Origin: Polyangiaceae bacterium LLY-WYZ-15_(1-7)
Lineage (GTDB): Bacteria; Myxococcota_A; Polyangia; Polyangiales; Houyiibacteriaceae
Length of the DNA: 27,113 nt
Direction of reading: 5' to 3'
NCBI GenBank assembly: GCA_031800675.1
Contig: DAPKRU010000126.1
Coordinates: 1-27,113, forward strand
This document shows positions 7,821 through 17,487 of the stretch, piece by piece. The position numbers and the translations under genes were made by a program. How positions within the stretch are numbered: position 1 is the first letter of the stretch; the number at the start of each line of letters is the position of its first letter. The notes below the pieces were generated by a model. It had not been told where the DNA came from. It saw nothing but the letters and a program-made list of their open reading frames with translations, and did not search any database.

Positions 7821-8565
7821 GATGGCGAAGAAGGTCCGGGCCGACGTCCTCCTGCACGAGCGCGGGCTCGCGCCGAGCCGTTCCCGCGCGCAGGCGCTGA
7901 TCCTCGCCGGCAAGGTCTACGTCGGCGAGCAGCGCGTGGAGAAGGCCGGCGAGCGCCTCGCGTCCGACGTCGAGCTCGTCGTGCGCGGCACCGACAACCC
8001 CTACGTCTCCCGCGGGGGCCTCAAGCTCCAGGGCGCCCTCGACGCCTTCGCCCTCGATCCGGCCGGCCTCGTCGCCGCCGACTTCGGCGCCTCCACCGGC
8101 GGCTTCACCGATTGCCTGCTCCAGCGCGGCGCGGCGAAGGTCTACGCGATCGACGTCGGGTACGGTCAGCTGCATCCGAAGCTCCGGAACGACGCACGCG
8201 TCGTCGTCATGGAGCGTACCAACGCGCGCCACCTGAAGGCCGGCGACCTGCCCGATCCCATCGATCTCGTCGTCATCGACGCCTCCTTCATCTCACTCCG
8301 GAAGCTCCTCCCCGCGGCCGTCGCGCTGCTGCGCCCGGGGGGCGAGGTCGTCGCGATGGTGAAGCCGCAGTTCGAGGTCGGCCGCCGCGAGGTCAGCAAG
8401 ACGAGCGGCGTCGTCCGGGACCCGGCGCTCCGCGCGAAGGCCATCGACGCCGTCGCCGCCGAGGCCGCCGCGCTCGGCCTCGAGGAGGTCGCCCGCGCCG
8501 ACGCGCCCATCAAGGGCCCGAAGGGCAACCACGAAGCCTTCCTGCGTCTCCGCGCACGCGCCTGA
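7821..8565 (+). CDS. tlyA: TlyA-family rRNA 2'-O-methyltransferase (hemolysin A family)
   Basis: MAKKVRADVLLHERGLAPSRSRAQALILAGKV is the S4 domain. FtsJ-like methyltransferase motifs (AADFGASTGGFTDCLLQRGA, VIDASFISL) follow. Confidence 0.85.
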
Positions 8566-8831
8566 CTCCGCCGCGCTTCGAAGGGGGCGACGCCGCGCCG
8601 ACTGCCCGCTCGTGGGGCGCGTGTCGATGGGCGGGCCGGGTGGGCGAGGTCCACCCCACGAAGCGGAGGGAGCCCCCGGCGAGAAGAGCTGGCGCCTGCC
8701 GTTCGCGGAGCGGGACGTCGAGCGGATCCCCGGAGCGGATCGCTGGAGGGACTCCGACCCGCGGCGCGGCGCCTCCCGTCCTCGACCGCCGGGGCGGCCT
8801 CACGCAGCCGGCTCGGCGCCGCGGCGATCGA

Positions 8832-8905
8832 GGTCGGGCGCTGGTTCCGGCGCGTGGATTCGAACCACGATTCGCGGATTCAAAGTCCGCTGTCCTGCCA
8901 TTAGA
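8832..8905 (-). tRNA. tRNA-Gln (anticodon TTG)
   Basis: Acceptor TCCGGCG/CGCCGGA pairs 7/7. T-arm CGTGG-TTCGAAT-CCACG. Anticodon arm GCGGA-CTTTGAA-TCCGC. CCA is encoded. Confidence 0.8.
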
Positions 8906-9043
8906 CGACGCCGGAGAGAGTGGCGCGGCCGGGCCGCGCTCGGATGTCGTGCACATACCACGGGCGCGGCGGCCGAGCCACGAAGGCCCCGCCGCCGGAT
9001 TGCCCCTTTCGCCGCCCGCGCCGCGCGGTATGCTCGGCGCCCC

Positions 9044-9742
9044 ATGGCCACCGCGCGAACGCTCGAGCTCACGGACCCGATCAAGCGCCGCCTGCTGCAC
9101 CTGCGCTACGTGAGCGGCACGAAGACCGACCCGACGCTCGACGCGGCCCTCGTCGAGGACGTCGAGAAGACCCTCGGCCTGAAGCTCGGCGACAACCTGC
9201 TCGCGCTCCTCGCGAACGGCGACGTCGCCCTCGAGGGCTTCGACGTGCGCCTGCAGAACGTCGTCTCGCTGACCAAGGAGCTCCACGCGAGCGGCGGCCC
9301 GCGCGGCATGGTCGGCCTCGGGCGCGACCCGGGCGGCGACGTGCTCGTGGCGGCGCCCCTCGGCGGGAAGGGTGTCGCCTTCTTCGACACGCGCGACCGC
9401 TCGATCGACGCCGTGCCTCTCGAGGCGTGGCTCGACGAGCTGGTGGGCACGCAGCTCGAGCAGCTCCGCGAGGACGAGTCGGACGACAAGGCGCGCGCGT
9501 TCAAGTCCGTGCACGACGAGGACCTCGGGGGCTTCCGGCCGGCGCTCGTCGTGGACGAGACGCCCGCCAAGCGGGTCTCGCACCCGAAGTTCGGCGGCGG
9601 CGCGATCCTGCGCGAGCTGGACGGCGGCGCGAAGCTCGAGGTGCGCTTCGACGACGGATCGAAGCGCACGCTGCTCGCGCGCTTCCTCACCCGCCAGGGC
9701 GGCGGGGAGGAACCTTCGGGGGACGCGGGCGCGGAGGCCTGA
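9044..9742 (+). CDS. Hypothetical protein with a C-terminal UvrD-C/DUF3553-like motif and a possible SMI1/KNR4 (SUKH)-like N-region
   Basis: The C-terminus HPKFGGGAILRELDGGAKLEVRFDDGSKRTLLARFL resembles the helicase C-terminal Tudor-like motif. The N-terminus has a VEKTLGLKLGDNLLALLANGD stretch reminiscent of SUKH immunity proteins. It is the only plus-strand gene inside the tRNA array. Confidence 0.5.
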   Translation: MATARTLELTDPIKRRLLHLRYVSGTKTDPTLDAALVEDVEKTLGLKLGDNLLALLANGDVALEGFDVRLQNVVSLTKELHASGGPRGMVGLGRDPGGDVLVAAPLGGKGVAFFDTRDRSIDAVPLEAWLDELVGTQLEQLREDESDDKARAFKSVHDEDLGGFRPALVVDETPAKRVSHPKFGGGAILRELDGGAKLEVRFDDGSKRTLLARFLTRQGGGEEPSGDAGAEA

Positions 9743-9912
9743 GGAGGCCGGCGAGGAAGCTCGAGCGTGGAGGCTCGGCGCCGCCTCGCCCCGGCGGACG
9801 TGCCGGCCGCCGCCCTGTTCGAGAGCGGGAGGGCCGGAGCAGGTCGACCGAGCGGGCAGCCCGAGCGTGTCTGCTCCATGAGGCGCGGCGAGCCCGGACG
9901 GTTCGCGCGGCG

Positions 9913-9986
9913 TGGTGCGAGAAGCGGGACTCGAACCCACATCTTCGGCGTGGCGCACCGGTGTCCTGCCGTTGGACGATTCTCGC
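9913..9986 (-). tRNA. tRNA-Gly-like (anticodon GCC), non-canonical anticodon loop
   Basis: Acceptor GCGAGAA/TTCTCGC 7/7. T-arm GTGGG-TTCGAGT-CCCGC. Anticodon loop GCGCCAC has C at position 33 and a 27:43 C-A mismatch. CCA is encoded. Confidence 0.5.
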
Positions 9987-10016
9987 GGAGGCGCGGCCCG
10001 GAGCGCGGGCCGCGGG

Positions 10017-10088
10017 AGCGACGAGCGGGAGTCGAACCCACATCTCCGACATGGCCAGCCGGTGTCTTGTCCATTGGACGATCGTCGC
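10017..10088 (-). tRNA. tRNA-Gly-like (anticodon GCC), non-canonical anticodon loop
   Basis: Acceptor GCGACGA/TCGTCGC 7/7. T-arm GTGGG-TTCGACT-CCCGC. Anticodon arm CCGGC-TGGCCAT-GTCGG with G at position 33. Confidence 0.5.
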
Positions 10089-10184
10089 AGACGCGCCTCC
10101 GAAGAGGCGCGGTGCCTCGCCTCCCCCCGCGGGTGCGAGGAGGGGCGCGGCGTGGCCGCTGGAGCAGCCGGGAGGAACGACGAG

Positions 10185-11015
10185 TCAGCGCTCGTCTTCC
10201 AGGAGCTCGAGGTCCTTCAGGCCGACCACGAAGCGCCCGCCGGAGCGGGCCATGGTCGCGAGGGTCTCGAGCTGGCGAAGCTTCAGCAGGGCCGGGTGCG
10301 CGGCGAGGGCCTCGGCCTGCTCGACCTCGGCCCGGAGCGCGACGCGCTGGCGTTCCAGCTCGGCCGCCGAGCGCTCCTTCTCCGCCTCGAGCTCGAGGTG
10401 GAGCCGCTCGCGCTCGGCCTCGAGGCGACGCCGCTGCGCCTCCTCGTCGGCCCGGGCGGCCAGCTTGCGGGCCTCGATGTCCTTGCGCTGCTGGATGAGC
10501 TTCGCCTCCGCGCGGCGCTCGGTCTCGAGGACCTGGTTCATGATCGTCTTGAGGTTCCCCGGGAAGACGAGATCCTTCACGTCCGCCCGGTGGATCTCGA
10601 CGCCGTAGCCCTGCGCCGCGTCCTTGACGGTCTCGCGGACCGCGTCCGAGATCTCGTTGCGGTCGCTGAGGATCGCGTCGAGGTCGCGGCTCGCGAGGAA
10701 GCGGCGCGCAGCGAGCTGCACGTCCTCGTAGATGCGCGCCTCGTAGTCGGCGACGTGGTGCTTGGCGGCGACCGGGTCGACGACCTCGAAGTAGACGAGG
10801 AGCGAGACGCGGATCGCGACCTTGTCGCGGGTCAGGATCTCCTGGCCCTTGATGACGAGGGAGCGCTCGCGGAGGTCGACGAGGTCGACGCGGCGGACCT
10901 TGCGGTCGAAGAGGCCGCCGCCCAGGGGATGGCGGCCGGGGGGGAGGGCGTCCTCGTAGACGCCGTCCACGTAGAGGAGCCCGACGTGGGCGTTCGGAAC
11001 GACGAAGTGCGACAT
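10185..11015 (-). CDS. SPFH/band-7 (stomatin/prohibitin-like) domain protein
   Basis: Start MSHFVVPNAHVGLLYVDGVY (cat at 11013-11015) is preceded by a GGAGGTG RBS. The SPFH core is ILTRDKVAIRVSLLVYFEVVDP. The C-terminus is a coiled coil rich in E/R/A. Confidence 0.8.
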   Translation of the reverse strand: MSHFVVPNAHVGLLYVDGVYEDALPPGRHPLGGGLFDRKVRRVDLVDLRERSLVIKGQEILTRDKVAIRVSLLVYFEVVDPVAAKHHVADYEARIYEDVQLAARRFLASRDLDAILSDRNEISDAVRETVKDAAQGYGVEIHRADVKDLVFPGNLKTIMNQVLETERRAEAKLIQQRKDIEARKLAARADEEAQRRRLEAERERLHLELEAEKERSAAELERQRVALRAEVEQAEALAAHPALLKLRQLETLATMARSGGRFVVGLKDLELLEDER

Positions 11016-11191
11016 GGTGCACCTCCTGGGGAAAGGGGTGGAAAGGGAGGCCGAGCGCCTACGCAGTGGCAAGACGTAGAACGGGGAGCTCCGGCGGGAC
11101 GCGCCGGAGGGGCCGGACCAGTACGAGTGGCCTGATCTCTTGGAAGGAGAGACTCGCTCCGGCCCCGCTACTTCCATGGGGCGCTCGGCGG

Positions 11192-11262
11192 TGCGGTGAG
11201 GGGGAATCGAACCCCCGTCTCCAGGATGGGACTCTGGTGTCGTGCCGTTGGACCATCACCGC
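11192..11262 (-). tRNA. tRNA-Gly (anticodon CCC)
   Basis: Acceptor GCGGTGA/TCACCGC 7/7. T-arm GGGGG-TTCGATT-CCCCC. Anticodon loop GTCCCAT with a 31:39 mismatch. Confidence 0.6.
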
Positions 11263-11351
11263 AGGCGGGGTGCCCCGGAGGCGGGTGCACCCCTCATCGC
11301 TCCTCCGCACGAGCTCCGGTGCCGCCCACCGAAGGAAACAGAGGACCGGGG

Positions 11352-11381
11352 TCGCGACGCCGTCGTCAGCAGAGGCGTCGC
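11352..11381 (-). terminator. GC-rich hairpin (9-bp stem CGCGACGCC/GGCGTCGCG) immediately 3' of tRNA-Ser(GCT); possible terminator or processing structure
   Basis: Read directly. On the minus strand it is followed by tcctctgtttcctt. Confidence 0.3.
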
Positions 11382-11385
11382 GCCG

Positions 11386-11471
11386 GCGGAGAACGGAGGT
11401 CTCGAACCCCACACCCACGCGGGTGCGCACGGTTTAGCAAACCGGCCTGGCCGCCCGGCCAGTTCGTTCTC
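11386..11471 (-). tRNA. tRNA-Ser (anticodon GCT), type II (long variable arm)
   Basis: Acceptor GGAGAAC/GTTCTCC 7/7. T-arm TGGGG-TTCGAGA-CCTCC. Anticodon loop TTGCTAA. Variable-arm helix CACCC-GCGT-GGGTG. Confidence 0.65.
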
Positions 11472-11514
11472 CAGAGGCCTCGAGGGAGGCCGAGGCGCGC
11501 CCGAAGGCGCACCG

Positions 11515-11606
11515 GCACGCCGGCCAGGAATCGAACCCGACTCACCGGATTTGGAATCCGAGCTGCTCCCAGAGCACCGACGTATGAGCTCCCGAGCGAC
11601 CCGGCG
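11515..11606 (-). tRNA. tRNA-Trp-like (anticodon CCA), atypically long (92 nt) with about 20 extra nt between the acceptor and anticodon arms
   Basis: Acceptor ACGCCGG/CCGGCGT 7/7. T-arm TCGGG-TTCGATT-CCTGG. Anticodon arm TCGGA-TTCCAAA-TCCGG. The D-region is 39 nt instead of about 19. Confidence 0.4.
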
Positions 11607-11755
11607 TCGTTCGACGGGGCCGTCGTGATCGTCTCGAGCGACGCGAGCGCCTGCGCCCGCGCCGGCCCTCGTGGACCGCCCCCACGCTCTCGTTCGAAGA
11701 GCGTGCGAGCGAAGCGAGGGCGAGGGGGAGAGCGGCCCCTCCATGAACGCGGCGG

Positions 11756-11842
11756 CGGAGAGCAGAGGACTCGCACCCCACGCCCGCGAAGGCGCGCACC
11801 GCTTTCGAGGCGGGCTCGGTGGCCTGCACCGATTTGCTCTCC
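11756..11842 (-). tRNA. tRNA-Ser-like (anticodon CGA), type II, with a non-canonical T-loop TGCGAGT
   Basis: Acceptor GGAGAGC/GCTCTCC 7/7. Anticodon arm CCGC-CTCGAAA-GCGG. The T-loop has G at position 55, so it may be a pseudogene. It shares architecture with the Ser(GCT) tRNA at 11386-11471. Confidence 0.45.
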
Positions 11843-11850
11843 AGGGTCGG

Positions 11851-11934
11851 CGGAAGCGAGAGGACTCGAACCCCACGCCCATGGGCGCGCATCCGCTTCC
11901 AACGGAGCCTGGTCCCCCGACCAGCTTCGCTTCC
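11851..11934 (-). tRNA. tRNA-Ser (anticodon GGA), type II
   Basis: Acceptor GGAAGCG/CGCTTCC 7/7. T-loop TTCGAGT. Anticodon loop TTGGAAG. Variable-arm helix CGCCC-AT-GGGCG. Confidence 0.65.
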
Positions 11935-11959
11935 ATCGATCGCGCTCCGCAGAGCGCGG

Positions 11960-12031
11960 TCGGGGTGGCAGGAGTCGAACCTGCACCTTCCCGGCCCCCA
12001 GCCGGGCGTCTTCCCCCAAGACTTCACCCCG
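11960..12031 (-). tRNA. tRNA-Pro (anticodon GGG)
   Basis: Acceptor CGGGGTG/CACCCCG 7/7. D-stem GTCT/AGAC. Anticodon arm CCCGG-CTGGGGG-CCGGG with G37. T-arm GCAGG-TTCGACT-CCTGC. Confidence 0.75.
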
Positions 12032-12185
12032 AGGGCTCCGCCGGCGCCGGCGGAGGGGCGTCACCCGCTGGGCGACGCGAAGAAAGGACCGGGAGGGAGG
12101 CGCGCGTTCCCGCGGCGTTCGTTGGCGCGCCCCCCTCCCGGAGGGCCCGCGCCGGGACCATTCCCGACGCGGAAGGCGCTCCCCA

Positions 12186-12704
12186 TCAGGCGAGCGCCGA
12201 GGTCCAGGACATCCACGTCCGCCAGTGCTGCGGGATGTGCGAGACGTCGAGGTGCAGCGTGCCCCCGGGCAGCCACTTCGGCCGACGCGGCGCCTTGCGG
12301 AGCGGCATCTTCGCCTGCTGCGGCGTCCGGTCCGCCTTCCGCTCGTTGCAGCGGCGGCACGCGGTCACGATGTTCTCCCACGTCGTGGTGCCGCCCTGGG
12401 CGCGCGGCAGGACGTGGTCGTACGTCAGGTCACGCATCGGCAGCTTCTCGCCGCAGTACTGGCAGCTGAAGCCGTCCCGCAGGAAGACGTTCAGGCGCGA
12501 GAACTTGATGCGGTGCTGGCGGAAGCGGTTCCCCTGGCGGAGGCGCACGACGGCGGGCATGCGCATCGCGAGGCTGACGGAACGGATGACGTCCTCGTAC
12601 TCCTCCACGACGTCGGCCTTGCCCACGTACAGGAGCGTGACGGCCTTCTGCCAGGGGACGATTTGGTGCGGTTGGTAGCCTTGGTCGAGAACGAGCGTGC
12701 GCAT
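12186..12704 (-). CDS. HNH endonuclease embedded in the tRNA array
   Basis: HNH motif: DHVLPRAQGGTTTWENIVTACRRCNERKADR with upstream Cys pair CQYCGEKL. Start MRTLVLDQGYQ (cat at 12702-12704) is preceded by an AGGAGAT RBS. Confidence 0.8.
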   Translation of the reverse strand: MRTLVLDQGYQPHQIVPWQKAVTLLYVGKADVVEEYEDVIRSVSLAMRMPAVVRLRQGNRFRQHRIKFSRLNVFLRDGFSCQYCGEKLPMRDLTYDHVLPRAQGGTTTWENIVTACRRCNERKADRTPQQAKMPLRKAPRRPKWLPGGTLHLDVSHIPQHWRTWMSWTSALA

Positions 12705-12796
12705 GGCGAGATCTCCTGCGTGCCTGCGGCACGCGGTGGTGGACGAGACGGGTCGCCCCCGCGAAGGGGGACCCGCTGGCCGACCATTCGGCCGAG

Positions 12797-12826
12797 CGAC
12801 GCGCGGCGATCTCGTGCGCGTCGCGG
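12797..12826 (-). terminator. Perfect 9-bp inverted repeat GCGACGCGC...GCGCGTCGC abutting the 3' end of tRNA-Glu(CTC) and upstream of the HNH gene
   Basis: Read directly. Function unknown (terminator, processing or regulatory). Confidence 0.3.
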
Positions 12827-12899
12827 CGACGGATACGGGACTCGAACCCGTGTTTCCTGGCTGAGAACCAAGCGTCCTGGGCCACTAGACGAATCCGTC
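12827..12899 (-). tRNA. tRNA-Glu (anticodon CTC)
   Basis: Acceptor GACGGAT/ATCCGTC 7/7. Anticodon arm CTTGG-TTCTCAG-CCAGG. T-arm ACGGG-TTCGAGT-CCCGT. Confidence 0.7.
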
Positions 12900-12921
12900 G
12901 GGAGGCGGCTCGCGCCGCCGG

Positions 12922-13004
12922 TACCAGGGACAGGAGTCGAACCTGCATGCCTCGAGGGGCCACACGACCTCAGCGTGCTGCGTTTACCGTTTCGCCACCC
13001 TGGC
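12922..13004 (-). tRNA. tRNA-Leu (anticodon GAG), type II
   Basis: Acceptor GCCAGGG/CCCTGGT (G1-U72). Anticodon arm GCACG-CTGAGGT-CGTGT. Long variable arm CCTC-GAGG. T-arm GCAGG-TTCGACT-CCTGT. Confidence 0.65.
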
Positions 13005-13063
13005 GTGGCACGCCCGGTCGGGGCGCGTGTTCGTTCGCGGCGCAGAGCGCGCCGCCGCGTCGG

Positions 13064-13136
13064 TACGGGATCAGGGGATCGAACCCTGCTCCTCCGCCTC
13101 GTCATGGCGGCGTCGTCCCCAGACGACTCATCCCGT
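13064..13136 (-). tRNA. tRNA-Val (anticodon GAC)
   Basis: Acceptor ACGGGAT/ATCCCGT 7/7. D-stem GTCG/CGAC. Anticodon arm CCGCC-ATGACGA-GGCGG. T-arm CAGGG-TTCGATC-CCCTG. Position 8 is G. Confidence 0.7.
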
Positions 13137-13284
13137 GTGATCCGCGCCGGAGCTCGCCTCCGACGGGGGAGGGGCGAAGCTCAGCCCCGAGCGAGCGGTC
13201 CGAGAGCGGGAAGAGGAGGGCGGCCCGGTGTCTGCGGGCGCGCCCGTGGCGAGCGATGGCGCCGTGTCGTGCGAAGCGACCGCG

Positions 13285-13438
13285 CCCGCATCTGCCCGCT
13301 CGGCCCGGCCTCGCAGGCCGCGCTCGCCCGGACTCGAAGAACGGGGAGGCGCGTGCGAGCGAAGCGAGCGCGAGGGAGGGGGACCCGGCGGAGCTCGCCT
13401 CCGACGGGGGAGGGGCGAAGCTCAGCCCCTCCCATCAA
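13285..13438. repeat. Roughly 150-bp segmental repeat, copy 1 (GCCCGCATCTGCCCGCTCGGCC...GAGCTCGCCTCCGACGGGGGAGGGGCGAAGCTCAGCCCCTCC)
   Basis: Near-identical copy at 13775-13928. The 40-bp 3' core hairpin element GGAGCTCGCCTCCGACGGGGGAGGGGCGAAGCTCAGCCCC also occurs at 13149-13189. Confidence 0.75.
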
Positions 13439-13444
13439 TACCGG

Positions 13445-13526
13445 TACCGGAGACAGGAGTCGAACCTGCATGCCTCGAGGGCCACGCGTTCTGAGCGCGC
13501 TACGTATACCGTTCCGCCACTCCGGT
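13445..13526 (-). tRNA. tRNA-Leu (anticodon CAG), type II
   Basis: Acceptor ACCGGAG/CTCCGGT 7/7. Anticodon arm GCGCG-CTCAGAA-CGCGT. Paralogous to Leu(GAG), sharing the same D and T arms. Confidence 0.7.
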
Positions 13527-13549
13527 GCATGGACGGCCGAAGCCGTCGG

Positions 13550-13621
13550 CGACGCGTACGGGAATCGAACCCGTCTCACCCCGGAGACAACGGGGCTGCA
13601 TACCCAGATGCACAACGCGCC
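13550..13621 (-). tRNA. tRNA-Asp (anticodon GTC)
   Basis: Acceptor GGCGCGT/ACGCGTC (one G-U). D-stem TGCA/TGCA. Anticodon arm CCCCG-TTGTCTC-CGGGG. T-arm ACGGG-TTCGATT-CCCGT. Confidence 0.75.
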
Positions 13622-13650
13622 ATGATCGATGAGCTCGCTCGCGCGAGCGG

Positions 13651-13730
13651 TGCTGGAGGCAGGAGTCGAACCTGCACGCCCGAGGGCCACGTGGTTTGAG
13701 CACGCTGCGTCTCCCGTTCCGCCACTCCAG
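13651..13730 (-). tRNA. tRNA-Leu (anticodon CAA), type II
   Basis: Acceptor GCTGGAG/CTCCAGC 7/7. Anticodon loop CTCAAAC. Long variable arm. T-arm GCAGG-TTCGACT-CCTGC. Confidence 0.7.
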
Positions 13731-13774
13731 CGCCGAGCCGCCGCGGACCGCGTCGTCGCCACCGGGGCTCGGGC

Positions 13775-13928
13775 GGCCGCCCCCGCATCTGCCCGCTCGG
13801 CCCGCCTCGCAGGCCGCGTTCGCCCGGACTCGAAGAACGGGGTGGTGCGTGCGAGCGAAGCGAGCGCGAGGGAGGGGGACCCGTCGGAGCTCGCCTCCGA
13901 CGGGGGAGGGGCGAAGCTCAGCCCCTCC
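13775..13928. repeat. Roughly 150-bp segmental repeat, copy 2
   Basis: Aligns with 13285-13438 with a few substitutions. Confidence 0.75.
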
Positions 13929-13938
13929 AAGAACGCCG

Positions 13939-13986
13939 CGCCACGTGGTTTGAGCACGCTGCGTCTCCCGTTCCGCCACTCCAGCG
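13939..13986 (-). pseudogene. Truncated tRNA-Leu(CAA) fragment: the 5' half (acceptor through anticodon arm and part of the variable arm) is duplicated without the T-arm or 3' acceptor
   Basis: ccacgtggtttgagcacgctgcgtctcccgttccgccactccagcgcc is identical to 13688-13733. Its downstream flank gccgagccgccgcggaccgcgtcgtcgccacc is also duplicated. Confidence 0.7.
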
Positions 13987-14089
13987 CCGAGCCGCCGCGG
14001 ACCGCGTCGTCGCCACCTGGGCTCGGGGGCTCCGGCTCGCAGACGGACCGGCTGCTTCCGCGAAGGTCGGCGCCTGGGCGTCGACCTCG

Positions 14090-14162
14090 GTACGGGGCCA
14101 GGGAATCGAACCCTGCTCGTCCGCCTCGTGACGGCGGCGTCGTCCCCAGACGACTCGCCCCG
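14090..14162 (-). tRNA. tRNA-Val (anticodon CAC)
   Basis: Acceptor GCGGGGC/GCCCCGT (G1-U72). Anticodon arm CCGCC-GTCACGA-GGCGG. Paralogous to Val(GAC). Confidence 0.7.
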
Positions 14163-14163
14163 C

Positions 14164-14233
14164 ATGGCTGCGGAGAGACTCGAACTCTCGCGGCCGCCCG
14201 TATGAGAGGCGTCGGCCGTCCTCGGCCCGCAGC
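14164..14233 (-). tRNA. tRNA-Met (anticodon CAT), short (70 nt) with a compact D-arm
   Basis: Acceptor GGCTGCG/CGCAGCC 7/7. Anticodon arm CGCCT-CTCATAC-GGGCG. T-arm GAGAG-TTCGAGT-CTCTC. Separated from the previous tRNA by 1 nt. Confidence 0.55.
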
Positions 14234-14269
14234 CGTTCGTGATGGCGGGTCGCCGCGAAGCGACCGCCG

Positions 14270-14342
14270 GCGCTTCCGCCAGGATTCGAACCTGGAACTC
14301 GGGTTTCGTAGACCCGCGTGATGATCCGTTTCACCACGGAAG
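14270..14342 (-). tRNA. tRNA-Arg (anticodon ACG)
   Basis: Acceptor GCTTCCG/CGGAAGC 7/7. D-stem GTGA/TCAC. Anticodon arm CGGGT-CTACGAA-ACCCG. T-arm CCAGG-TTCGAAT-CCTGG. Confidence 0.75.
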
Positions 14343-14435
14343 CAGGCGCCGCCCGCGGGCGGCACGAAGAGTGGGCGAGGGCGAGCGCACGGCACCGCGC
14401 GCCGAACGCGCGGGCGGTGATCGTCTCCTCGCCGG

Positions 14436-14503
14436 AGTGCCGAGTGGGAGTCGAACCCACCTTCGCCGGGTTGCAGCCGGCGGCGTTCCCAGAACACCGG
14501 CAC
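14436..14503 (-). tRNA. tRNA-Cys (anticodon GCA), compact (68 nt)
   Basis: Acceptor GTGCCGG/TCGGCAC (one G-U). Anticodon arm GCCGG-CTGCAAC-CCGGC. T-arm GTGGG-TTCGACT-CCCAC. Very short D-arm. Confidence 0.55.
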
Positions 14504-14510
14504 GCGATGG

Positions 14511-14582
14511 CGCTCCCCCCAGGGCTCGAACCTGGAACGCGGGCTCCGCACGCCCGAGTGATTCCGCTTTCACCAGAGAAGC
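14511..14582 (-). tRNA. tRNA-Arg (anticodon GCG)
   Basis: Acceptor GCTTCTC/GGGGAGC (two G-U). D-stem GTGA/TCAC. Anticodon arm CGGGC-GTGCGGA-GCCCG. T-arm CCAGG-TTCGAGC-CCTGG. Confidence 0.55.
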
Positions 14583-14644
14583 ATCGGCACCCTCGCTCCG
14601 ACTCGGCCGGATGGAGAGCGCACGCGAAGGCGCCGAAGCGCCGG

Positions 14645-14718
14645 TCCGTGTGGACGGATTCGAACCGCCGGCCTCCCCGACCCGAACGGGGCGCTCCTCC
14701 AGCCTGAGCTACACACGG
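14645..14718 (-). tRNA. tRNA-Pro (anticodon CGG)
   Basis: Acceptor CCGTGTG/CACACGG 7/7. D-stem GCTC/GAGC. Anticodon arm CCCCG-TTCGGGT-CGGGG. T-arm GGCGG-TTCGAAT-CCGTC. Confidence 0.75.
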
Positions 14719-14780
14719 AGGATCTCTCTCGAGCGCGGCGCCGAAGCTCCGCCATGAAGAAGCGGAGCCGAGCTCCGCGG

Positions 14781-14851
14781 CACTCCCGCCACGATTCGAA
14801 CGTGGACTTCAGGCTCCGGAAACCTGCGTGATTCCCTTTCACTACGGGAGC
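14781..14851 (-). tRNA. tRNA-Arg (anticodon CCG)
   Basis: Acceptor GCTCCCG/CGGGAGT (G1-U72). D-stem GTGA/TCAC. Anticodon arm CAGGT-TTCCGGA-GCCTG. T-arm CCACG-TTCGAAT-CGTGG. Confidence 0.7.
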
Positions 14852-14855
14852 GTGG

Positions 14856-14930
14856 TGACGCGTGGGGGATTCGAACCCCCGCCTCCCCGGCTGAAAACCG
14901 GGTGTCCTGGTGCCGCTAGACGAACGCGCC
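14856..14930 (-). tRNA. tRNA-Glu (anticodon TTC)
   Basis: Acceptor GGCGCGT/ACGCGTC. Anticodon arm CCCGG-TTTTCAG-CCGGG. T-arm GGGGG-TTCGAAT-CCCCC. Confidence 0.7.
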
Positions 14931-14942
14931 GGAATCGTCTGG

Positions 14943-15014
14943 AGCCCATGCCGGGACTCGCACCCGGCTCTCCGCCTTACGAGGGCGGCGCGTCGCTACC
15001 TACGCTTCGAGGGC
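14943..15014 (-). tRNA. tRNA-Thr-like (anticodon CGT), possible pseudogene
   Basis: Anticodon arm CCGCC-CTCGTAA-GGCGG. The T-loop is TGCGAGT (non-canonical). The acceptor GCCCTCG/CATGGGC has two adjacent mismatches. Paralog of the Thr(GGT) tRNA at 15138-15209. Confidence 0.4.
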
Positions 15015-15137
15015 AGGAGCGCGTCTTCCGACCCCGAAGCCCCCGCCGGAGCGGAGCCGCGGAGCCGGAAGGCGCGCTGGGAGAGGTCGGCGCCCCTCCC
15101 GCGGGAACGAACAACGAACGACAACTCGAGAGATGGA

Positions 15138-15209
15138 GCCCCCGCCGGGAATCGAACCCGGCTCTCCGCCTTACCGGGGCGGTGCGTCGCCGACTACGCA
15201 TCGTGGGCA
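15138..15209 (-). tRNA. tRNA-Thr (anticodon GGT), C at position 33
   Basis: Acceptor GCCCACG/CGGGGGC (one mismatch). D-stem GCGT/ACGC. Anticodon arm CCGCC-CCGGTAA-GGCGG. T-arm CCGGG-TTCGATT-CCCGG. Confidence 0.55.
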
Positions 15210-15236
15210 TGGCGCGGCGCCGGGCGCCGTCGCGGT

Positions 15237-15308
15237 GGAGATGGCGGGAATCGAACCCGCGGCCTCAGCCGTGCCATGGCTGCGCTCTCCCCCTGAGCTA
15301 CATCCCCT
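15237..15308 (-). tRNA. tRNA-Ala (anticodon GGC)
   Basis: Acceptor GGGGATG/CATCTCC with G3-U70 (Ala identity pair). D-stem GCTC/GAGC. Anticodon arm CAGCC-ATGGCAC-GGCTG. T-arm GCGGG-TTCGATT-CCCGC. Confidence 0.75.
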
Positions 15309-15336
15309 CTCGAACGCGCCCCGTTCGGCGCGCGGT

Positions 15337-15409
15337 GGAACCGGCGGGACTCGAACCCGCAGTCTCCGGCTTGCGACACCGGCGCCCTCCCCGTTGGGCC
15401 ACGATCCCT
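15337..15409 (-). tRNA. tRNA-Ala (anticodon CGC)
   Basis: Acceptor GGGATCG/CGGTTCC with G3-U70. D-stem GCCC/GGGC. Anticodon arm CCGGT-GTCGCAA-GCCGG. T-arm GCGGG-TTCGAGT-CCCGC. Confidence 0.7.
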
Positions 15410-15438
15410 CGCGAACGCTCCCCTCGCGGGGCGCGCGG

Positions 15439-15510
15439 TCCACTCGGGAAGAATCGAACTTCCGTTTCCCGCGTATCAGACGGGCGTCTTCACCATTGGA
15501 CGACGAGTGG
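15439..15510 (-). tRNA. tRNA-Ile (anticodon GAT)
   Basis: Acceptor CCACTCG/CGAGTGG 7/7. Anticodon arm CCCGT-CTGATAC-GCGGG. T-arm GGAAG-TTCGATT-CTTCC. Confidence 0.7.
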
Positions 15511-15514
15511 GTGG

Positions 15515-15586
15515 CGCCGCGTACGGGAATCGAACCCGTCTCACTCCGTAGACAGCGGAGCTGGTACGCCAGCTTCATCACGCGGC
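15515..15586 (-). tRNA. tRNA-Asp (anticodon GTC), second divergent copy
   Basis: Acceptor GCCGCGT/ACGCGGC 7/7. Anticodon arm CTCCG-CTGTCTA-CGGAG. T-arm ACGGG-TTCGATT-CCCGT. The D-region is unusual. Confidence 0.6.
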
Positions 15587-15633
15587 AGCGTCGGGCGGGC
15601 GGTGCGAGGCCTTCAGCCCCTCCGCCCACGCGG

Positions 15634-15706
15634 TGGCTCGAGCAGGGATCGAACCTGCACCTTCCGGGCTTCAACCGGACGCGCTCACCAGATGCGCTTT
15701 CGAGCC
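15634..15706 (-). tRNA. tRNA-Phe (anticodon GAA)
   Basis: Acceptor GGCTCGA/TCGAGCC 7/7. D-stem GCGC/GCGC. Anticodon arm TCCGG-TTGAAGC-CCGGA. T-arm GCAGG-TTCGATC-CCTGC. Confidence 0.75.
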
Positions 15707-15733
15707 GTCGCGGCGACCGGAGTCGCCGCCCGG

Positions 15734-15804
15734 CGGGGAGGTGCGGAGTCGAACCGCAACAACCCCGGTTAACGGCCGGGGCGCTCTCCCTGAGCTACCT
15801 CCCC
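15734..15804 (-). tRNA. tRNA-Asn (anticodon GTT), C at position 33
   Basis: Acceptor GGGGAGG/CCTCCCC 7/7. D-stem GCTC/GAGC. Anticodon arm CCCGG-CCGTTAA-CCGGG. T-arm TGCGG-TTCGACT-CCGCA. Confidence 0.6.
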
Positions 15805-15853
15805 ACGCACCGGGCTCCCGGTGCGCGCGCTCGCTCCGCGGAGCGAGCCGTGG

Positions 15854-15926
15854 GGTGACCGGGGGGAATCGAACCCCGACGCCGACTCGGGTCACGGCCG
15901 AGCGGACAGACCTCTGCGCGGTCACC
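15854..15926 (-). tRNA. tRNA-His (anticodon GTG) with encoded G-1 and C73; C at position 33
   Basis: Acceptor GTGACCG/CGGTCAC 7/7, plus an extra 5' G opposite discriminator C (His identity). Anticodon arm CTCGG-CCGTGAC-CCGAG. T-arm CGGGG-TTCGATT-CCCCC. Confidence 0.65.
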
Positions 15927-16082
15927 ACGTCGCAGGCCGCCGAGCCGAGCTCGAAGACCTGCTCTCCGGCGCCCCAGCTCGTCTGCGAGCCGAAGCGCCG
16001 GAGTGACGTGAGGCGGGCGCGACACCGCCCCACGTCCCCCGATTGTCAAAGACCTCCCGCCACCCCCGCTGGGGTGACGCGG

Positions 16083-16154
16083 TACCGGACCAGGGAGTCG
16101 AACCCCGACCTCGTGGTTCAGAGCCACGCGTCCTCGCCGTTGGACCAGTCCGGT
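16083..16154 (-). tRNA. tRNA-Gln (anticodon CTG)
   Basis: Acceptor ACCGGAC/GTCCGGT 7/7. Anticodon arm CGTGG-CTCTGAA-CCACG. T-arm CGGGG-TTCGACT-CCCTG. Confidence 0.75.
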
Positions 16155-16247
16155 GTGTTCTCGAAAGAGCGATGGGAGCCGGGGGCTCCCGGGAGCGGGC
16201 GCAGGGCGCACCTCTCCCGTCGCGTCGCGAGCGGGTCGCGGCGCCGG

Positions 16248-16318
16248 TAGGGCACCAGGGGGTCGAACCCTGATCGACCGGTTAAGAGCCGGCTGCTCTG
16301 CCGTTGAGCTAGTGCCCC
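16248..16318 (-). tRNA. tRNA-Lys (anticodon CTT)
   Basis: Acceptor GGGGCAC/GTGCCCT (G1-U72). D-stem GCTC/GAGC. Anticodon arm GCCGG-CTCTTAA-CCGGT. T-arm CAGGG-TTCGACC-CCCTG. Confidence 0.75.
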
Positions 16319-16409
16319 GTGCCGAGGCCGGGCCTCGGTCTCGTCGTTCGCTCGCGCTCCCCCCACTGGGTCGTCGGAGAACGGGGTCCTCGGAGGGAGC
16401 TCTCGCGGT

Positions 16410-16489
16410 CGGGCAGGAAGGAATCGAACCTCGTGGGCAGAGCCCCGGCGACTTTACAGGCCGCCTGCCGGCCACCGGCGCCTACCCGG
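16410..16489 (-). tRNA. tRNA-Tyr (anticodon GTA), type II
   Basis: Acceptor CGGGTAG/CTGCCCG (one G-U). Anticodon arm GCGGC-CTGTAAA-GTCGC. Long variable arm GGGC-TCT-GCCC. T-arm CGAGG-TTCGATT-CCTTC. Confidence 0.6.
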
Positions 16490-16524
16490 GCGGGGACGGA
16501 AACGAAGACGGGCCACCTGCGCTG

Positions 16525-16552
16525 ACGCAGGCGGCCCGTAAAAGGAGCACGA
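16525..16552 (-). terminator. 12-bp GC hairpin (one A-C mismatch) followed on the minus strand by TCTTCGTTTCC, just upstream of the first array tRNA (Tyr)
   Basis: gggccacctgcg-ctga-cgcaggcggccc read directly. Could be a weak terminator or a processing or insulator structure. Confidence 0.3.
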
Positions 16553-16994
16553 GAGCCTGGCGTCAGTCTGCTGGACACCCTCCACGAAGGGCCGGCGCAC
16601 CGGCCTCCTCGCGCTTCGCCTCTTCCCTCTGTTCCGCGGAGTCGTCCGCAGAATGGGCATCACGTTCGGCGAGAGTGAGCAAACTATGAGTGTTGTGATT
16701 CGATGAAAATAGAGATTGATTCAGCGCGTACGAGTCCCCTCGTCCGGCCCCCCATCGGGGGCTGGGCTGCCTCGAGCTCACCGCGCAGGCCCTCGTTCGA
16801 GGTCGTGCTCGGCCACCGAGGCGCTCGCTCGGGACGCCCGGGATCCGCCCGTCGCGTCTCGAGAGATGACCTCCCGCTGCGTCCATCTCGCTCTCGTTCC
16901 GGCCTCGGCCGGTCGTTCTCCTCTCCTCGTTCGTTCCTCGGGCCGGGGCTCTTCCCCGGCATGCTCTTCGCTTGGGTCGGCGGCCCGGGATCTC

Positions 16995-17050
16995 CAGCCC
17001 AGACTCTCGAGCCCAGACTCTCCAGCCCAGACTCTCCAGCCCAGACACGA
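16995..17050. repeat. Tandem 14-bp repeat (C/G)AGCCCAGACTCTC in 3.5 copies
   Basis: cagcccagactctc, gagcccagactctc, cagcccagactctc, cagcccagacacga read directly. It lies immediately downstream of the minus-strand terminator. Confidence 0.8.
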
Positions 17051-17080
17051 AAAAAGCCGCCGGCGAGGTCGCTGGCGGCT
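17049..17080 (-). terminator. Rho-independent terminator on the minus strand
   Basis: 11-bp stem GCCGCCGGCGA/TCGCTGGCGGC (one G-U) followed on the minus strand by TTTTTTCG (the plus strand shows A6 at 17050-17055). Confidence 0.7.
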
Positions 17081-17478: not shown

Positions 17479-17487
17479 CGTGCTCTC

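Follow-up and report, generated by a model that had tools for sequence, protein, structure and literature searches.

The window analysed here, a stretch of 27,113 nucleotides, contains a dense cluster of tRNA genes, which raises the question of whether it is an ordinary housekeeping set, the cargo of a mobile element or an accessory array resident in the chromosome. The sequence-only reading had placed 35 tRNA or tRNA-like genes and one half-tRNA remnant on a single strand at 8832-16489. ARAGORN at default settings found 32 tRNA genes between 8842 and 16488, every one on the minus strand and with exactly the anticodon listed before; the other three (Ser-GCT, Ser-CGA and His-GTG) were recovered at relaxed thresholds, of which -ps90 also yields false positives within coding regions. 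The array holds from 9913 to 16488, but tRNA-Gln(TTG) (8842-8915, minus strand) proved to be a separate, canonical housekeeping gene: it scores 64 bits with RF00005, encodes its CCA and is 91-93% identical at the same relative position in the related genomes L009, L010 and L011. Because Gln-TTG behaves in this way and is set apart by a gene on the opposite strand (9044-9742), the array proper starts at 9913. The separating gene, recognized by its GC3 frame signal and also called on same-species contigs, encodes 232 amino acids with no known domain (no match in Pfam, NCBIfam or PHROG). The array proper (9913-16488, minus strand) comprises 34 tRNA or tRNA-like genes, 31 of them at the default threshold, plus a remnant and, set among them, two protein genes; over its 6.58 kb it averages 5.2 tRNA genes per kb, and three spacers measure a single nucleotide (14163/14165, 14851/14853 and 15510/15512).

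Covariance models bore out most of these genes. In a whole-window Rfam scan, 21 of the 32 ARAGORN genes reached the RF00005 gathering score of at least 29 bits, and Asn-GTT was gained in a more permissive scan of 8000-17500, giving a total of 22 that includes Ala-GGC, entered by the permissive scan under the tmRNA model. The remaining ARAGORN genes were weaker, being sub-threshold on RF00005 or matched solely by the related tRNA-Sec model, and Met-CAT had no covariance-model match in the permissive scan (8000-17500).

Read along the minus strand, with RF00005 scores unless the tRNA-Sec model is named and default ARAGORN calls unless stated otherwise, the array opens with a divergent tRNA-Tyr(GTA) (16407-16488; tRNA-Sec, 38.4 bits), followed by Lys(CTT) (16246-16318; 61.9 bits), Gln(CTG) (16081-16154; 61.2 bits), a marginal His(GTG)-like gene (15851-15925), Asn(GTT) (15732-15804; 52.2 bits), Phe(GAA) (15632-15706; 64.2 bits), a second Asp(GTC) (15512-15586; tRNA-Sec, 28.9 bits; 80% identical to the first, family D14), Ile(GAT) (15437-15510; 59.5 bits), and Ala(CGC) (15334-15408; 60.3 bits) and Ala(GGC) (15234-15307; 66.7 bits), both of which retain G3:U70. 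The His-GTG gene was called at -ps95 and matched the tRNA-Sec model at 28 bits (E 0.034); on reading its sequence, no encoded G-1 was seen. Next come Thr(GGT) (15134-15208; 46.5 bits), a divergent copy that carries C33 and A8, Thr(CGT) (14940-15014; 41.7 bits; T-loop TGCGAGT), Glu(TTC) (14853-14930; 54.3 bits), the sole U34 tRNA of the array, Arg(CCG) (14779-14851; 55.2 bits), Pro(CGG) (14643-14718; 54.9 bits), Arg(GCG) (14508-14582), an 80% identical paralogue (family D2) of Arg(ACG) (14269-14343; 61.8 bits), the 70-nt Cys(GCA) with U73 retained (14434-14503; tRNA-Sec, 31.9 bits), the 70-nt Met(CAT) (14165-14234), whose G1-C72 pair indicates that it is not initiator-like, and Val(CAC) (14089-14163; tRNA-Sec, 33.5 bits). 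To our knowledge, the Arg-GCG anticodon is unusual in bacteria; it also occurs in the arrays of L008, L009, L010, L011 and L094.

Further along lie Leu(CAA) (13649-13731; 50 bits), the first Asp(GTC) (13548-13621; tRNA-Sec, just 24.3 bits), Leu(CAG) (13443-13526; 50.5 bits), Val(GAC) (13062-13136; 26.4 bits; 89% identical to Val-CAC, family D5), Leu(GAG) (12920-13004; 51.1 bits), the 3' part of which is 95% identical to Leu-CAG (family D12), and Glu(CTC) (12825-12899; 56.5 bits). Beyond an embedded HNH nuclease gene (12186-12704, minus strand, 172 amino acids) we found Pro(GGG) (11958-12031; 54.7 bits), Ser(GGA) (11849-11934; tRNA-Sec, 33.1 bits), a marginal Ser(CGA)-like gene (11754-11842), a divergent 70-nt Trp(CCA) with A1-U72 and G73 retained (11514-11583; 28.8 bits, just sub-threshold), a marginal Ser(GCT)-like gene (11385-11472) and Gly(CCC) (11190-11262; 54.4 bits). 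The Ser-CGA gene, called solely at -ps90, has the non-standard T-loop TGCGAGT and matched the tRNA-Sec model at 36 bits (E 1.9e-5, local search); Ser-GCT, called solely at -ps95, was without a covariance-model match, and its 3' part is paralogous to both other Ser genes (family D11). Towards the array's 3' end, an SPFH/Band-7 gene (10185-11015, minus strand, 276 amino acids; Pfam PF01145, E 9.6e-28), 72% identical to its positional counterpart in L011 and 59% to that in L010, precedes two paralogous Gly(GCC) genes (10015-10088, 46.4 bits; 9913-9986, 50.7 bits; 80% identity over 55 nt, family D3).

All 20 amino acids are encoded, as proposed, but only when the marginal His gene is included. The count of G or C at position 34 in 32 of the 35 genes was reproduced, the exceptions being TTG, TTC and ACG, and the suggested tuning to G- and C-ending codons held: such codons make up 95.4% of the 5,424 local codons, and the 34 array tRNAs are able to read 98.9% of all of them, the unread ones being exclusively NNA. 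Across seven arrays, the share of U34 tended to drop with rising GC of the locus, a trend that was not significant (rho -0.64, p 0.12). The anticodon set would seem remodelled towards G34 and C34, and the array alone could read nearly every codon of a 95%-GC3 genome.

Whether such a set is the housekeeping one depends on canonical copies elsewhere. The same population, a Tara Oceans population labelled Sandaracinus sp. at NCBI, has a locus with the order Thr(TGT)-Tyr(GTA)-Gly(TCC)-Thr(GGT)-tuf-rpmG-Trp(CCA)-secE-nusG. Its tuf gene is 99.66% identical in nucleotide sequence to the tuf of the str operon, which lies downstream of the window, and a single Tara contig bridges both loci across tuf, with 99.98% and 99.86% identity to each. 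With RF00005, the canonical Tyr, Thr-GGT and Trp genes score 54.5, 71.2 and 61.8 bits, against 46.5 bits for Thr-GGT and 28.8 bits for Trp in the array (25-33 bits lower); no array Tyr copy stood among the RF00005 matches listed. Identity between canonical and array copies is 65-70% (Tyr 65%, Thr-GGT 68%, Trp 70%). Since canonical genes exist at this second tuf locus of the same population, the array Tyr, Thr-GGT and Trp are redundant copies, which agrees with the earlier proposal of an accessory rather than a housekeeping set. This evidence covers three of the 31 distinct anticodons, and some array genes could be the sole genomic copy of theirs.

Some of the array tRNAs may also be poor or inactive in translation: U8 is missing in 10 of the 31 default-threshold genes, position 33 of Thr-GGT is C, the T-loop is TGCGAGT in two cases and roughly one gene in three stays under the Rfam threshold. 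Against L011, array orthologues are 65-91% identical (median 0.79), compared with 91% for the flanking Gln-TTG and 88-95% for the canonical tuf-locus tRNAs. Given an ARAGORN cloverleaf call in both species, 150 of 459 stem pairs differ between the window and L011; both sides changed with pairing kept in 100, one side changed with pairing kept in 32, and in 18 one of the two genes has a non-pair. Comparison with four further arrays gave the same pattern. Selection acts on the cloverleaves, since changes in the stems from one species to another are for the most part compensatory. The T-loop is TTCGANN in 31 of 32 genes, and the discriminator bases, compared by eye with the standard identity rules (mostly those of E. 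coli), agree for the Trp, Cys, Asp, Ala, Tyr, Leu, Asn and Ser genes and for one of the three Gly genes. The array tRNA genes therefore appear to be fast-evolving yet structurally intact; cloverleaves and main synthetase identity elements are predicted to be preserved in sequences far from the canonical copies.

The comparison with relatives bears on where the array came from. Arrays of 16-38 tRNAs around an HNH gene are present in L008-L011 and L093, flanked by a chorismate-binding-enzyme gene in L008, L009, L010 and L093 and by tlyA in L011 and L093. The presence of the array at this one locus, between the chorismate-binding-enzyme gene and tlyA, in several related genomes indicates an old, vertically inherited resident of the clade. 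Nothing points to the array being carried by a mobile element today: its GC content equals that of its flanks, and no integrase or phage genes were found within the 27 kb. Nor is the HNH gene of the usual selfish homing type; forming the conserved core of the module, it is better conserved than its neighbours, and in Alphaproteobacteria members of its family also commonly occur as lone genes with no tRNAs nearby.

HNH-containing tRNA arrays form a recognized class, the long tRNA arrays (L-arrays, or tRNA array units; PMC8421152, PMC4758250, PMC5966550), and that of the window is a chromosomal L-array of this known kind. We found no report of such an array in Myxococcota, in line with the earlier remark that none was known to have been described in a myxobacterial-type chromosome. 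The likeness to phage and mobile-element arrays was also substantiated. In Anabaena/Nostoc PCC 7120, the HNH protein encoded beside its array is a full-length homologue of that of the window, its gene on pCC7120delta lying directly upstream of 24 tRNA genes. Within 8 kb, at least five tRNAs are found on 25 of the 80 IMG/VR contigs whose HNH genes are the nearest relatives, and every one of the 11 nearest belongs to this group. These contigs share with the window the order Lys-Gln(CTG)-Asn ... Leu block, HNH, Pro-Ser(GGA)-Ser(CGA) ... Gln(TTG). Their viral status depends on the database call, ORFan flanks and the similarity of a Ro60 gene to that of Myxococcus phage Mx1 (46% identity, on one array-bearing contig). 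Mx1 itself has tRNA genes alongside its own HNH gene (45.6% identical). The median tRNA identity is 0.61-0.68 to viral arrays and 0.57 to the unrelated Nostoc array, values too low for tRNA sequences to prove common descent with the viral arrays. The HNH-centred architecture, matching that of large phage-like contigs, makes ancient exchange with myxophages likely, beside vertical inheritance at one chromosomal locus within the clade.

Within the array, genes would have been duplicated locally in tandem, have switched anticodons inside their isoacceptor families or have been lost. A 254-bp tandem duplication (13773-14027, minus strand; families D6, 96%, and D7, 99%), missing from the same-species contigs L002-L005, contains a second spacer module and the half-tRNA remnant (13940-13987). 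The remnant is genuine: 13940-14027 repeats, at 99% identity, the segment 13686-13773, which holds the 5' half of Leu-CAA and its upstream spacer (family D7). The other spacer module (13145-13432, minus strand; families D6, D8, D15 and D16) bears a double-hairpin repeat, present in three exact copies with 0 expected, whose 41-nt core lies at 13148-13188 and 13389-13429. Pro-CGG is tandemly duplicated in the same-species contigs L003 and L005. For both Val-GAC and Val-CAC the nearest gene in relatives is Val-TAC, and for Ala-CGC it is Ala-TGC.

Upstream of tRNA-Tyr, a 14-bp GC-rich hairpin followed by CTTCGTTTCC (16498-16539, minus strand) ends about 10 nt before the gene, and in L011, L009 and L093 the first tRNA is preceded at the corresponding position by a hairpin with a T-run; the element of the window possibly serves the array leader as an attenuator or a terminator. 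An AT-rich stretch with AATCA(ATC) motifs (16670-16730, minus strand), comparable to a AATCAATC-rich stretch upstream of the L011 array, is a candidate promoter or operator, as judged from its sequence. Transcription would probably proceed in a few polycistronic units starting upstream of tRNA-Tyr, although the terminator-like hairpin directly before the first gene and the lack of a promoter match in a sigma-70 consensus scan upstream of the array count against this.

Overall, we consider it likely that the locus is a chromosomal L-array of a marine Sandaracinus-like myxobacterium, a second, redundant tRNA set around a conserved HNH gene. Its leader hairpin may restrict read-through, and RNase P together with 3'-processing enzymes would cleave the precursors. 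The Anabaena array has been demonstrated by experiment to supply tRNAs under translational stress; by analogy, the products of this array would supplement the tRNA pool for translation or form a reserve of it.

At default settings ARAGORN called 32 tRNA genes between 8842 and 16488, all on the minus strand and with the anticodons listed in the sequence-only reading, which had counted about 35 one-strand tRNA or tRNA-like genes. The other three are marginal, Ser-GCT and His-GTG being called at -ps95 and Ser-CGA at -ps90, the last with a tRNA-Sec-model match of 36 bits (E 1.9e-5). Covariance models supported the calls with uneven strength: 21 genes reached the gathering score of RF00005 and Asn-GTT was added by a more permissive scan, giving 22 in all. 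The remaining genes were sub-threshold or matched the tRNA-Sec model only (Trp 28.8 bits, Val-GAC 26.4 bits; Tyr, Ser-GGA, Val-CAC, Cys and both Asp genes, 24-38 bits), and Met-CAT had no covariance-model match in the Rfam scans. Over the array and its leader, these scans (gathering and permissive) returned only members of the tRNA clan, matches to Guanidine-III, Mg-II and Xoo2 (E 3-6) having been set aside as chance. The half-tRNA remnant suspected earlier duplicates, at 99% identity, the 5' half of Leu-CAA and its upstream spacer. The dense block first placed at 8832-16489 was recovered, but not its lower boundary: Gln-TTG (8842-8915), a 64-bit match with an encoded CCA, shows 91-93% identity in relatives and is separated from the other tRNA genes by a gene on the opposite strand. 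It is a normal neighbouring gene, and the array proper extends from 9913 to 16488, with 34 genes in 6.58 kb.

A tRNA array unit is defined by at least 20 tRNA genes per region and at least two per kb (Tran et al. 2016, PMC4758250). The region 9913-16488 holds 31 default calls, or 34 genes with the marginal ones, at densities of 4.7 and 5.2 per kb, respectively. Like L-arrays, which are long runs of co-oriented, closely spaced genes, potentially operons and rarely periodic, it has all its genes on one strand, many spacers of 1-60 nt and a non-periodic isotype order. No GC3 frame signal is present in the region; on the same-species contigs L001-L007, spurious ORFs of 226-274 aa have been called across it. 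A 41-nt double-hairpin element occurs in three exact copies in the array spacers (13148-13188, 13389-13429 and 13885-13925) and, among the sequences fetched, is confined to the array of this species. Near Gln-TTG, gene coordinates are offset by 18 bp between the window and L001 across 8566-9043, which implies an 18-bp indel between near-identical assemblies.

By GC3 framing and Pfam, the neighbourhood is that of an ordinary chromosome. Upstream of the array lie genes for two Ser/Thr kinases, a glycosyltransferase, an HD-domain protein and SSB, together with tlyA; downstream lie a chorismate-binding enzyme, a kinase and rpsL-rpsG-fusA, followed on longer contigs by tuf and the S10-spc operons, so that the array sits 7 kb upstream of rpsL-rpsG-fusA-tuf-S10-spc. 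Only two protein genes interrupt the tRNA genes, one encoding an SPFH/Band-7 protein (10185-11015) and one a 172-aa HNH nuclease (12186-12704). No integrase, transposase, phage structural gene or direct-repeat boundary was found within the 27 kb, and a check of local GC showed no deviation, the array (0.70-0.74) being equal to its flanks. The hallmarks of a prophage or integrative-element island (integrase or phage genes, att-type boundaries, odd composition) are thus absent. The sequence matches the Tara Oceans scaffold TARA_SAMEA2623264_METAG-scaffold_451 and lies on the MAGs GCA_002699025.1 and GCA_002720945.1; the EF-Tu of this genome is labelled 'Sandaracinus sp.' by NCBI, and the exact HNH protein recurs in 140 blocks of the collection, pointing to a widespread marine population. 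Further along the ribosomal operons, the gene called after rpsJ (S10) is rplD (L4), 8 nt downstream, both in this species (L090, 13464-14403) and in the genome of a relative with a complete chromosome, L011 (L099, 9209-10154). No rplC (L3) was found between rpsJ and rplD in either, a departure from the usual gene order of the S10 operon.

Searching with the EF-Tu of the population led to a second tuf locus with the order Thr(TGT)-Tyr(GTA)-Gly(TCC)-Thr(GGT)-tuf-rpmG-Trp(CCA)-secE-nusG. Three results link it to the population of the window. Its tuf is 99.66% identical in nucleotide sequence to that of the str operon, with one amino-acid difference. The Tara contig L095 (ERR868355 k127_1538410) bridges both loci across tuf, with 99.98% identity on the str-S10-spc side and 99.86% on the side of the tRNA genes and tuf; this contig is probably a chimeric join across the near-identical paralogues. 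In a relative, both loci are found on a complete chromosome of 9.07 Mb (OZ245758.1). Scores of the canonical genes are 54.5 bits for Tyr, 71.2 for Thr-GGT and 61.8 for Trp, and these genes are 88-95% identical between the two species. The array copies of Thr-GGT (46.5 bits) and Trp (28.8 bits) score 25-33 bits below their canonical counterparts, the array Tyr is not listed under RF00005, and array and canonical versions of the three share only 65-70% identity. At least three array genes (Tyr-GTA, Thr-GGT and Trp-CCA) are therefore redundant, divergent isodecoders, supernumerary as in L-arrays, by a check that covers these three of the 31 distinct anticodons of the array. In addition, the array has a single CAT gene, no initiator-type Met and no reader of NNA codons, so that other tRNA genes must exist. 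For the three isoacceptors checked, it is thus not a housekeeping operon holding the sole or canonical copies, and the proposal that it is accessory is supported by the refutation test attached to it.

The cloverleaves are intact, with 19-23 pairs (25 in Tyr), nearly all Watson-Crick, and 31 of the 32 T-loops read TTCGANN. We compared the acceptor, anticodon and T stems of the window genes with those of the same-anticodon genes of L011 (459 pairs), a count conditioned on a tRNA call in both partners, and found 150 pairs that differ: 100 have changed on both sides and 32 on one side with pairing kept, and 18 are a non-pair in one gene. Four further arrays show a similar pattern, which is the signature of selection on RNA structure. 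Judged by the textbook identity rules, which are mostly those of E. coli, the array keeps G3:U70 in both Ala genes, A1-U72 and G73 in Trp, U73 in Cys and G73 in Asp. Non-standard features are the absence of U8 from 10 of 31 genes, C33 in Thr-GGT and TGCGAGT in two T-loops. Identity to the L011 orthologues is 65-91% (median 0.79), against 91% for the neighbouring Gln-TTG. Every array gene has a templated CC after the discriminator base, followed by G in most and by A in the others, so that a CCA-adding or repair step would be needed.

The anticodon set had been described as tuned to G- and C-ending codons, and the codons of 17 window genes agree: 95.4% of 5,424 end in G or C, and the 34 array tRNAs can read 98.9% of them by standard wobble, the 57 unread codons all being A-ending. 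The share of U34 is 17-25% in arrays at 60-66% GC and 3-13% in those at 72-74% GC, a relation that is suggestive but, across seven arrays, not significant (rho -0.64, p 0.12). Val-GAC and Val-CAC are 89% alike and both closest to the Val-TAC of relatives, Leu-GAG and Leu-CAG have a 95%-identical 3' part in common, Arg-ACG, Arg-GCG and Arg-CCG form one paralogue family, and Ala-CGC is closest to the Ala-TGC of L008, another relative. Such paralogy and cross-species best matches point to local duplication and anticodon change as the origin of the G/C34 set. Turnover continues: same-species contigs differ by a 254-bp duplication and a tandem copy of Pro-CGG. Bacteria normally read the CGN box through inosine-34, and an Arg tRNA with G34 is unusual; tRNA-Arg(GCG) (14508-14582) accompanies Arg(ACG) in almost all related arrays (also in L008, L009, L010, L011 and L094). 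Other unusual anticodons are Ile(TAT) in L016 (9780-9852), Leu(AAG) in L009 (10560-10635) and Ile(AAT) in Myxococcus phage Mx1 (L089, 3013-3087).

To place the array among relatives, species-representative genomes were scanned with the HNH protein and tRNA genes were counted within 10 kb. On the HNH strand there are 24 in L008 (HNH 80% identical to that of the window), 38 in L011 (79%), 34 in L009 (69%), 17 in L010 (65%) and 20 in the more distant L016 (49%). Context look-ups added 16 tRNA genes in a Sandaracinaceae MAG (L093) and seven, at a different locus, in a 'Myxococcales' MAG (L094); a Myxococcota contig (L092) has no tRNAs around its HNH gene, and only 0-2 are found nearby in the Polyangiaceae MAGs L012-L015 and in about 70 mainly alphaproteobacterial genomes. 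The gene for the chorismate-binding enzyme flanks the array in L008, L009, L010 and L093, tlyA flanks it in L011 and L093, and an SPFH gene stands at the array end in L011 (72% identical) and L010 (59%). Gene order is largely collinear, from Tyr, Lys, Gln-CTG and Asn through the Leu block, HNH and Pro/Ser/Trp/Gly to Gln-TTG. The array thus appears to be vertically inherited at one locus within the clade, with gains and losses, rather than recently inserted. L-arrays have a scattered phylogenetic distribution, indicating spread by horizontal transfer (PMC8421152); here the distribution is syntenic and apparently vertical across L008-L011 and L093, with no array around the HNH gene in L012-L015 and L092, another locus in L094 and a similar architecture in viral contigs. 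The L011 array also encodes, directly after its HNH gene (10760-11440), an RF1-like protein of 226 aa that is truncated at the N terminus and keeps its GGQ motif intact; neither the window nor the other loci have such a gene.

The HNH family is large (4,750 matches), its domain is of the Cas9/IscB type, and the N-terminal 60 residues had no clear match in a fold search. The gene is present in every related array examined, in line with the conserved adjoining HNH of L-arrays, and within the clade its product is 79-80% conserved, compared with 56% for the chorismate-binding enzyme and 72% for both TlyA and the SPFH protein, a degree of conservation that, on these identities, is unlike that of a decaying selfish homing gene. 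A full-length homologue (35% identity over 164 residues) is encoded on the Nostoc PCC 7120 plasmid pCC7120delta, directly upstream of 24 tRNA genes on the same strand, and by its position we take it to be all8564. The HNH gene linked to this L-array is reported to be shared by cyanobacterial arrays in general and to be induced together with the array when translation is under stress (PMC8421152), and HNH genes are the most widespread coding genes of mycobacterial arrays (PMC5966550).

The sequence-only reading had likened the array to those of phages and mobile elements, and as history this resemblance gained substance. Scanning IMG/VR with the HNH alignment gave 80 contigs, 25 of which have at least five tRNAs within 8 kb. 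Arrays are present on each of the 11 closest contigs (HNH 48-57% identity, 10-448 kb), and the largest array comprises 45 tRNAs. Their order, with (Tyr)-Lys-Lys-Gln(CTG)-Asn first, an Arg/Cys/Met/Val block, a Leu block directly before HNH, then Pro-Ser(GGA)-Ser(CGA) and Gln(TTG) at the array end, echoes that of the window. The HNH protein of phage Mx1 is 45.6% identical to that of the window, and its gene is flanked by tRNA-Leu genes. A present-day mobile reading found no support, the 27 kb holding no mobility genes. Common descent with viral or cyanobacterial arrays could not be established by tRNA sequence identity, the genes being too diverged; old exchange between myxophages and this clade, in either direction, is the simplest reading, the contigs being viral by IMG/VR assignment. 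On the 252-kb contig L183, the array adjoins a Ro60/TROVE gene (13276-14943) whose product is 46% identical to the Ro60 of Mx1. Ro60/TROVE genes also stand next to HNH-tRNA arrays in Mx1 itself (L089, 1-1519) and in the chromosomal L009 (11861-12883), which hints at a theme of RNA quality control or repair. Ten ORFs flanking the array in the IMG/VR contig L105 had no Pfam or PHROG match.

Taken together, these features place the array in the already known class of L-arrays and tRNA array units. With the L-array of Anabaena/Nostoc PCC 7120 (the trn operon of pCC7120delta) it shares a long, non-periodic, co-oriented run with spacers of a few to tens of bases, redundant isodecoders added to a dispersed canonical set, a homologous same-strand HNH gene and frequent duplications and deletions (PMC8421152). 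It differs in being chromosomal and syntenic across its clade, whereas the Nostoc array is plasmid-borne and cyanobacterial L-arrays are of scattered distribution; in having the HNH gene inside rather than upstream of the array; in having almost no U34, which is plentiful in Nostoc; and in its tRNA sequences, which show no specific similarity (median 0.57). The Anabaena array is silent in normal growth and induced when translation is impaired (PMC8421152). Mycobacterial tRNA array units, found on chromosomes, plasmids and mycobacteriophages, likewise belong to high-GC hosts, comprise 20-40 tRNA genes and have HNH as the commonest embedded gene; some include RF-1-domain, translation-rescue genes, as the L011 array includes its RF1-like gene (PMC5966550). 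Array types are common to mycobacterial phages and chromosomes, and these arrays are read as horizontally transferred, often near prophage traces, of which none is seen here (PMC5966550). Our sole comparison with them is through HNH matches in five Mycobacterium and four Mycolicibacterium plasmids. Among the tRNA clusters of large phages (T4, T5, cluster C/M mycobacteriophages, Synechococcus phage S-CBWM1, Mx1), those of S-CBWM1 and Mx1 have an HNH homologue amid the tRNA genes, and in IMG/VR contigs of 55-448 kb as many as 45 tRNAs surround an HNH with 48-57% identity to ours, the gene order being the same. As a rule, arrays of phages complement the codon usage of the host or stand in for host tRNAs cleaved during infection; in contrast, the array studied here is resident and host-adapted, on a bacterial chromosome (Ser/Thr kinases, SSB, tlyA, str operon) with no phage genes. 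The rrn-linked tRNA arrays of Firmicutes and the accretive arrays ('A-arrays') share its apparently vertical inheritance and growth by local duplication, but they consist of housekeeping genes, in many cases with a periodic order and next to rRNA operons. Redundancy, a non-periodic order and the lack of nearby rRNA set the present array apart.

A small ORF (17122-17478) whose body is poorly conserved lies upstream of the array; taken as an ORF or transcript with its signals, the element covers 17122-17530 and 17040-17080 in the window and 3340-3700 in L011. Its putative promoter, TTGACA-N17-TAnnnA, is common to the window and L011, with a similar TTGACAC stretch in L009, and its terminator (GAAGCCGCC...GGCGGCTTTTTT) is kept in sequence upstream of all six arrays compared, including that of L016. 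We considered and dismissed the ORF as a structured RNA, only the 3' end and terminator being conserved, with no family match. Four tandem 14-nt repeats (GAGTCTGGGCTGGA; 16990-17048) stand just after the terminator; in Anabaena, regulation of the array works by way of direct repeats in the promoter. After the 14-nt repeats come a stretch rich in AT and a hairpin of 14 bp, whose T-rich tail ends about 10 nt before Tyr, and a hairpin with a T-run occupies the same position in L011, L009 and L093. This terminator-like hairpin, the one hint here of a silent but inducible array as in Anabaena, may keep expression low or conditional. A consensus scan of 8500-17700 found no sigma-70 promoter. In the mechanism we propose, transcription would proceed in a few units from upstream of Tyr, the hairpin would hold expression low or conditional, CCA would be added or repaired after transcription onto the templated CC, and the products would form a supplementary or reserve tRNA pool for G/C-ending codons.

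Other explanations have to be weighed. That the cell's main or only tRNA genes are gathered here near ribosomal-protein operons, as in Firmicutes, would fit the synteny in relatives, the position 7 kb upstream of rpsL-rpsG-fusA-tuf-S10-spc, the match to codon usage and the selection on stems. Such a housekeeping cluster is nevertheless highly improbable: the same population has, at another locus, Tyr-GTA, Thr-GGT and Trp-CCA genes that score better and are far more conserved, the array has one CAT gene, no initiator-type Met and no NNA reader, and the divergence of its genes is two to three times as fast as that of Gln-TTG and the tRNAs of the tuf locus. A late arrival on a prophage, integrative element or other mobile DNA is very unlikely too, even with an embedded HNH gene, related HNH-centred arrays in IMG/VR contigs, an HNH gene near the tRNAs of Mx1 and a seven-tRNA HNH cluster at a different locus in L094; the 27 kb lack integrase, transposase, phage structural gene and direct-repeat boundary, GC is like that of the flanks (0.70-0.74), the same flanks recur in several species-level relatives with HNH 62-80% identical, no close relative was seen to have an empty site with a clean junction between the chorismate-binding-enzyme gene and tlyA, and the anticodon set is adapted to host GC3.

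The array might instead be a silent set of tRNA pseudogenes persisting by chance, with no present function. About one third of the genes fall below the Rfam threshold, ten lack U8, there are a truncated Leu-CAA remnant and three marginal genes, and a terminator-like hairpin precedes the first gene. We consider such decay unlikely, because, among the 150 stem pairs differing from L011, 132 still pair, 100 of them changed on both sides, T-loops, the G3:U70 of Ala and discriminator bases have been retained, codon usage is mirrored in the anticodon set, and the array persists across genomes whose EF-Tu is only 88% identical. A role outside decoding, as decoys or spares against tRNA-cleaving toxins, substrates of aminoacyl-tRNA-dependent biosynthesis or Ro60-type RNA quality-control partners, could account for divergent sequences without some core nucleotides, for the Ro60/TROVE genes beside related arrays (L183, Mx1, L009), and for the truncated RF1-like gene with its GGQ motif in the L011 array, which recalls the RF-1-domain and peptidyl-tRNA-hydrolase genes of mycobacterial arrays (PMC5966550). 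We find it hardly probable, given that coverage of all 20 amino acids, retained identity elements and codon-matched anticodons are what selection by translation is expected to leave, and that the window holds no Ro60, RtcB or biosynthetic partner gene.

Returning to a reserve pool used in decoding, we put forward a broader scenario as speculation with a small though real chance of being right. A clade of Sandaracinus-like Myxococcota would have domesticated a giant-myxophage module (HNH and about 35 tRNAs) and long kept it behind an attenuator as a second, deliberately divergent reserve set, used when canonical tRNAs are damaged or depleted, for example by phage anticodon nucleases or the tRNase toxins of competitors, with the unusually conserved HNH protein benefiting the host. 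If so, HNH would maintain, diversify or regulate the array and not act as a selfish homing gene.

No published report of such arrays in Myxococcota was found in the searchable literature, and the sequence-only reading was likewise aware of none from a myxobacterial-type chromosome. This, together with apparently vertical inheritance at a fixed locus and an anticodon set co-adapted to an extreme-GC genome, is what makes the case notable. Long tRNA arrays have so far been seen as sporadic, horizontally moving and mostly cryptic, and the present one extends them to a phylum for which we found no report. For genome annotation, the array copies are expected to inflate the tRNA counts of these genomes, and spurious ORFs are called across the array. 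Several species-level genomes with the array at the same locus, at 60-74% GC, and their phage-borne counterparts form a natural comparative series, in which one can follow the remodelling of anticodons, the divergence of isodecoders whose structure is constrained, and an HNH gene that surpasses its neighbours in conservation. The series makes it possible to test whether such arrays are functional reserve pools, how a tRNA repertoire relates to genome composition, and what role the array-linked HNH plays.
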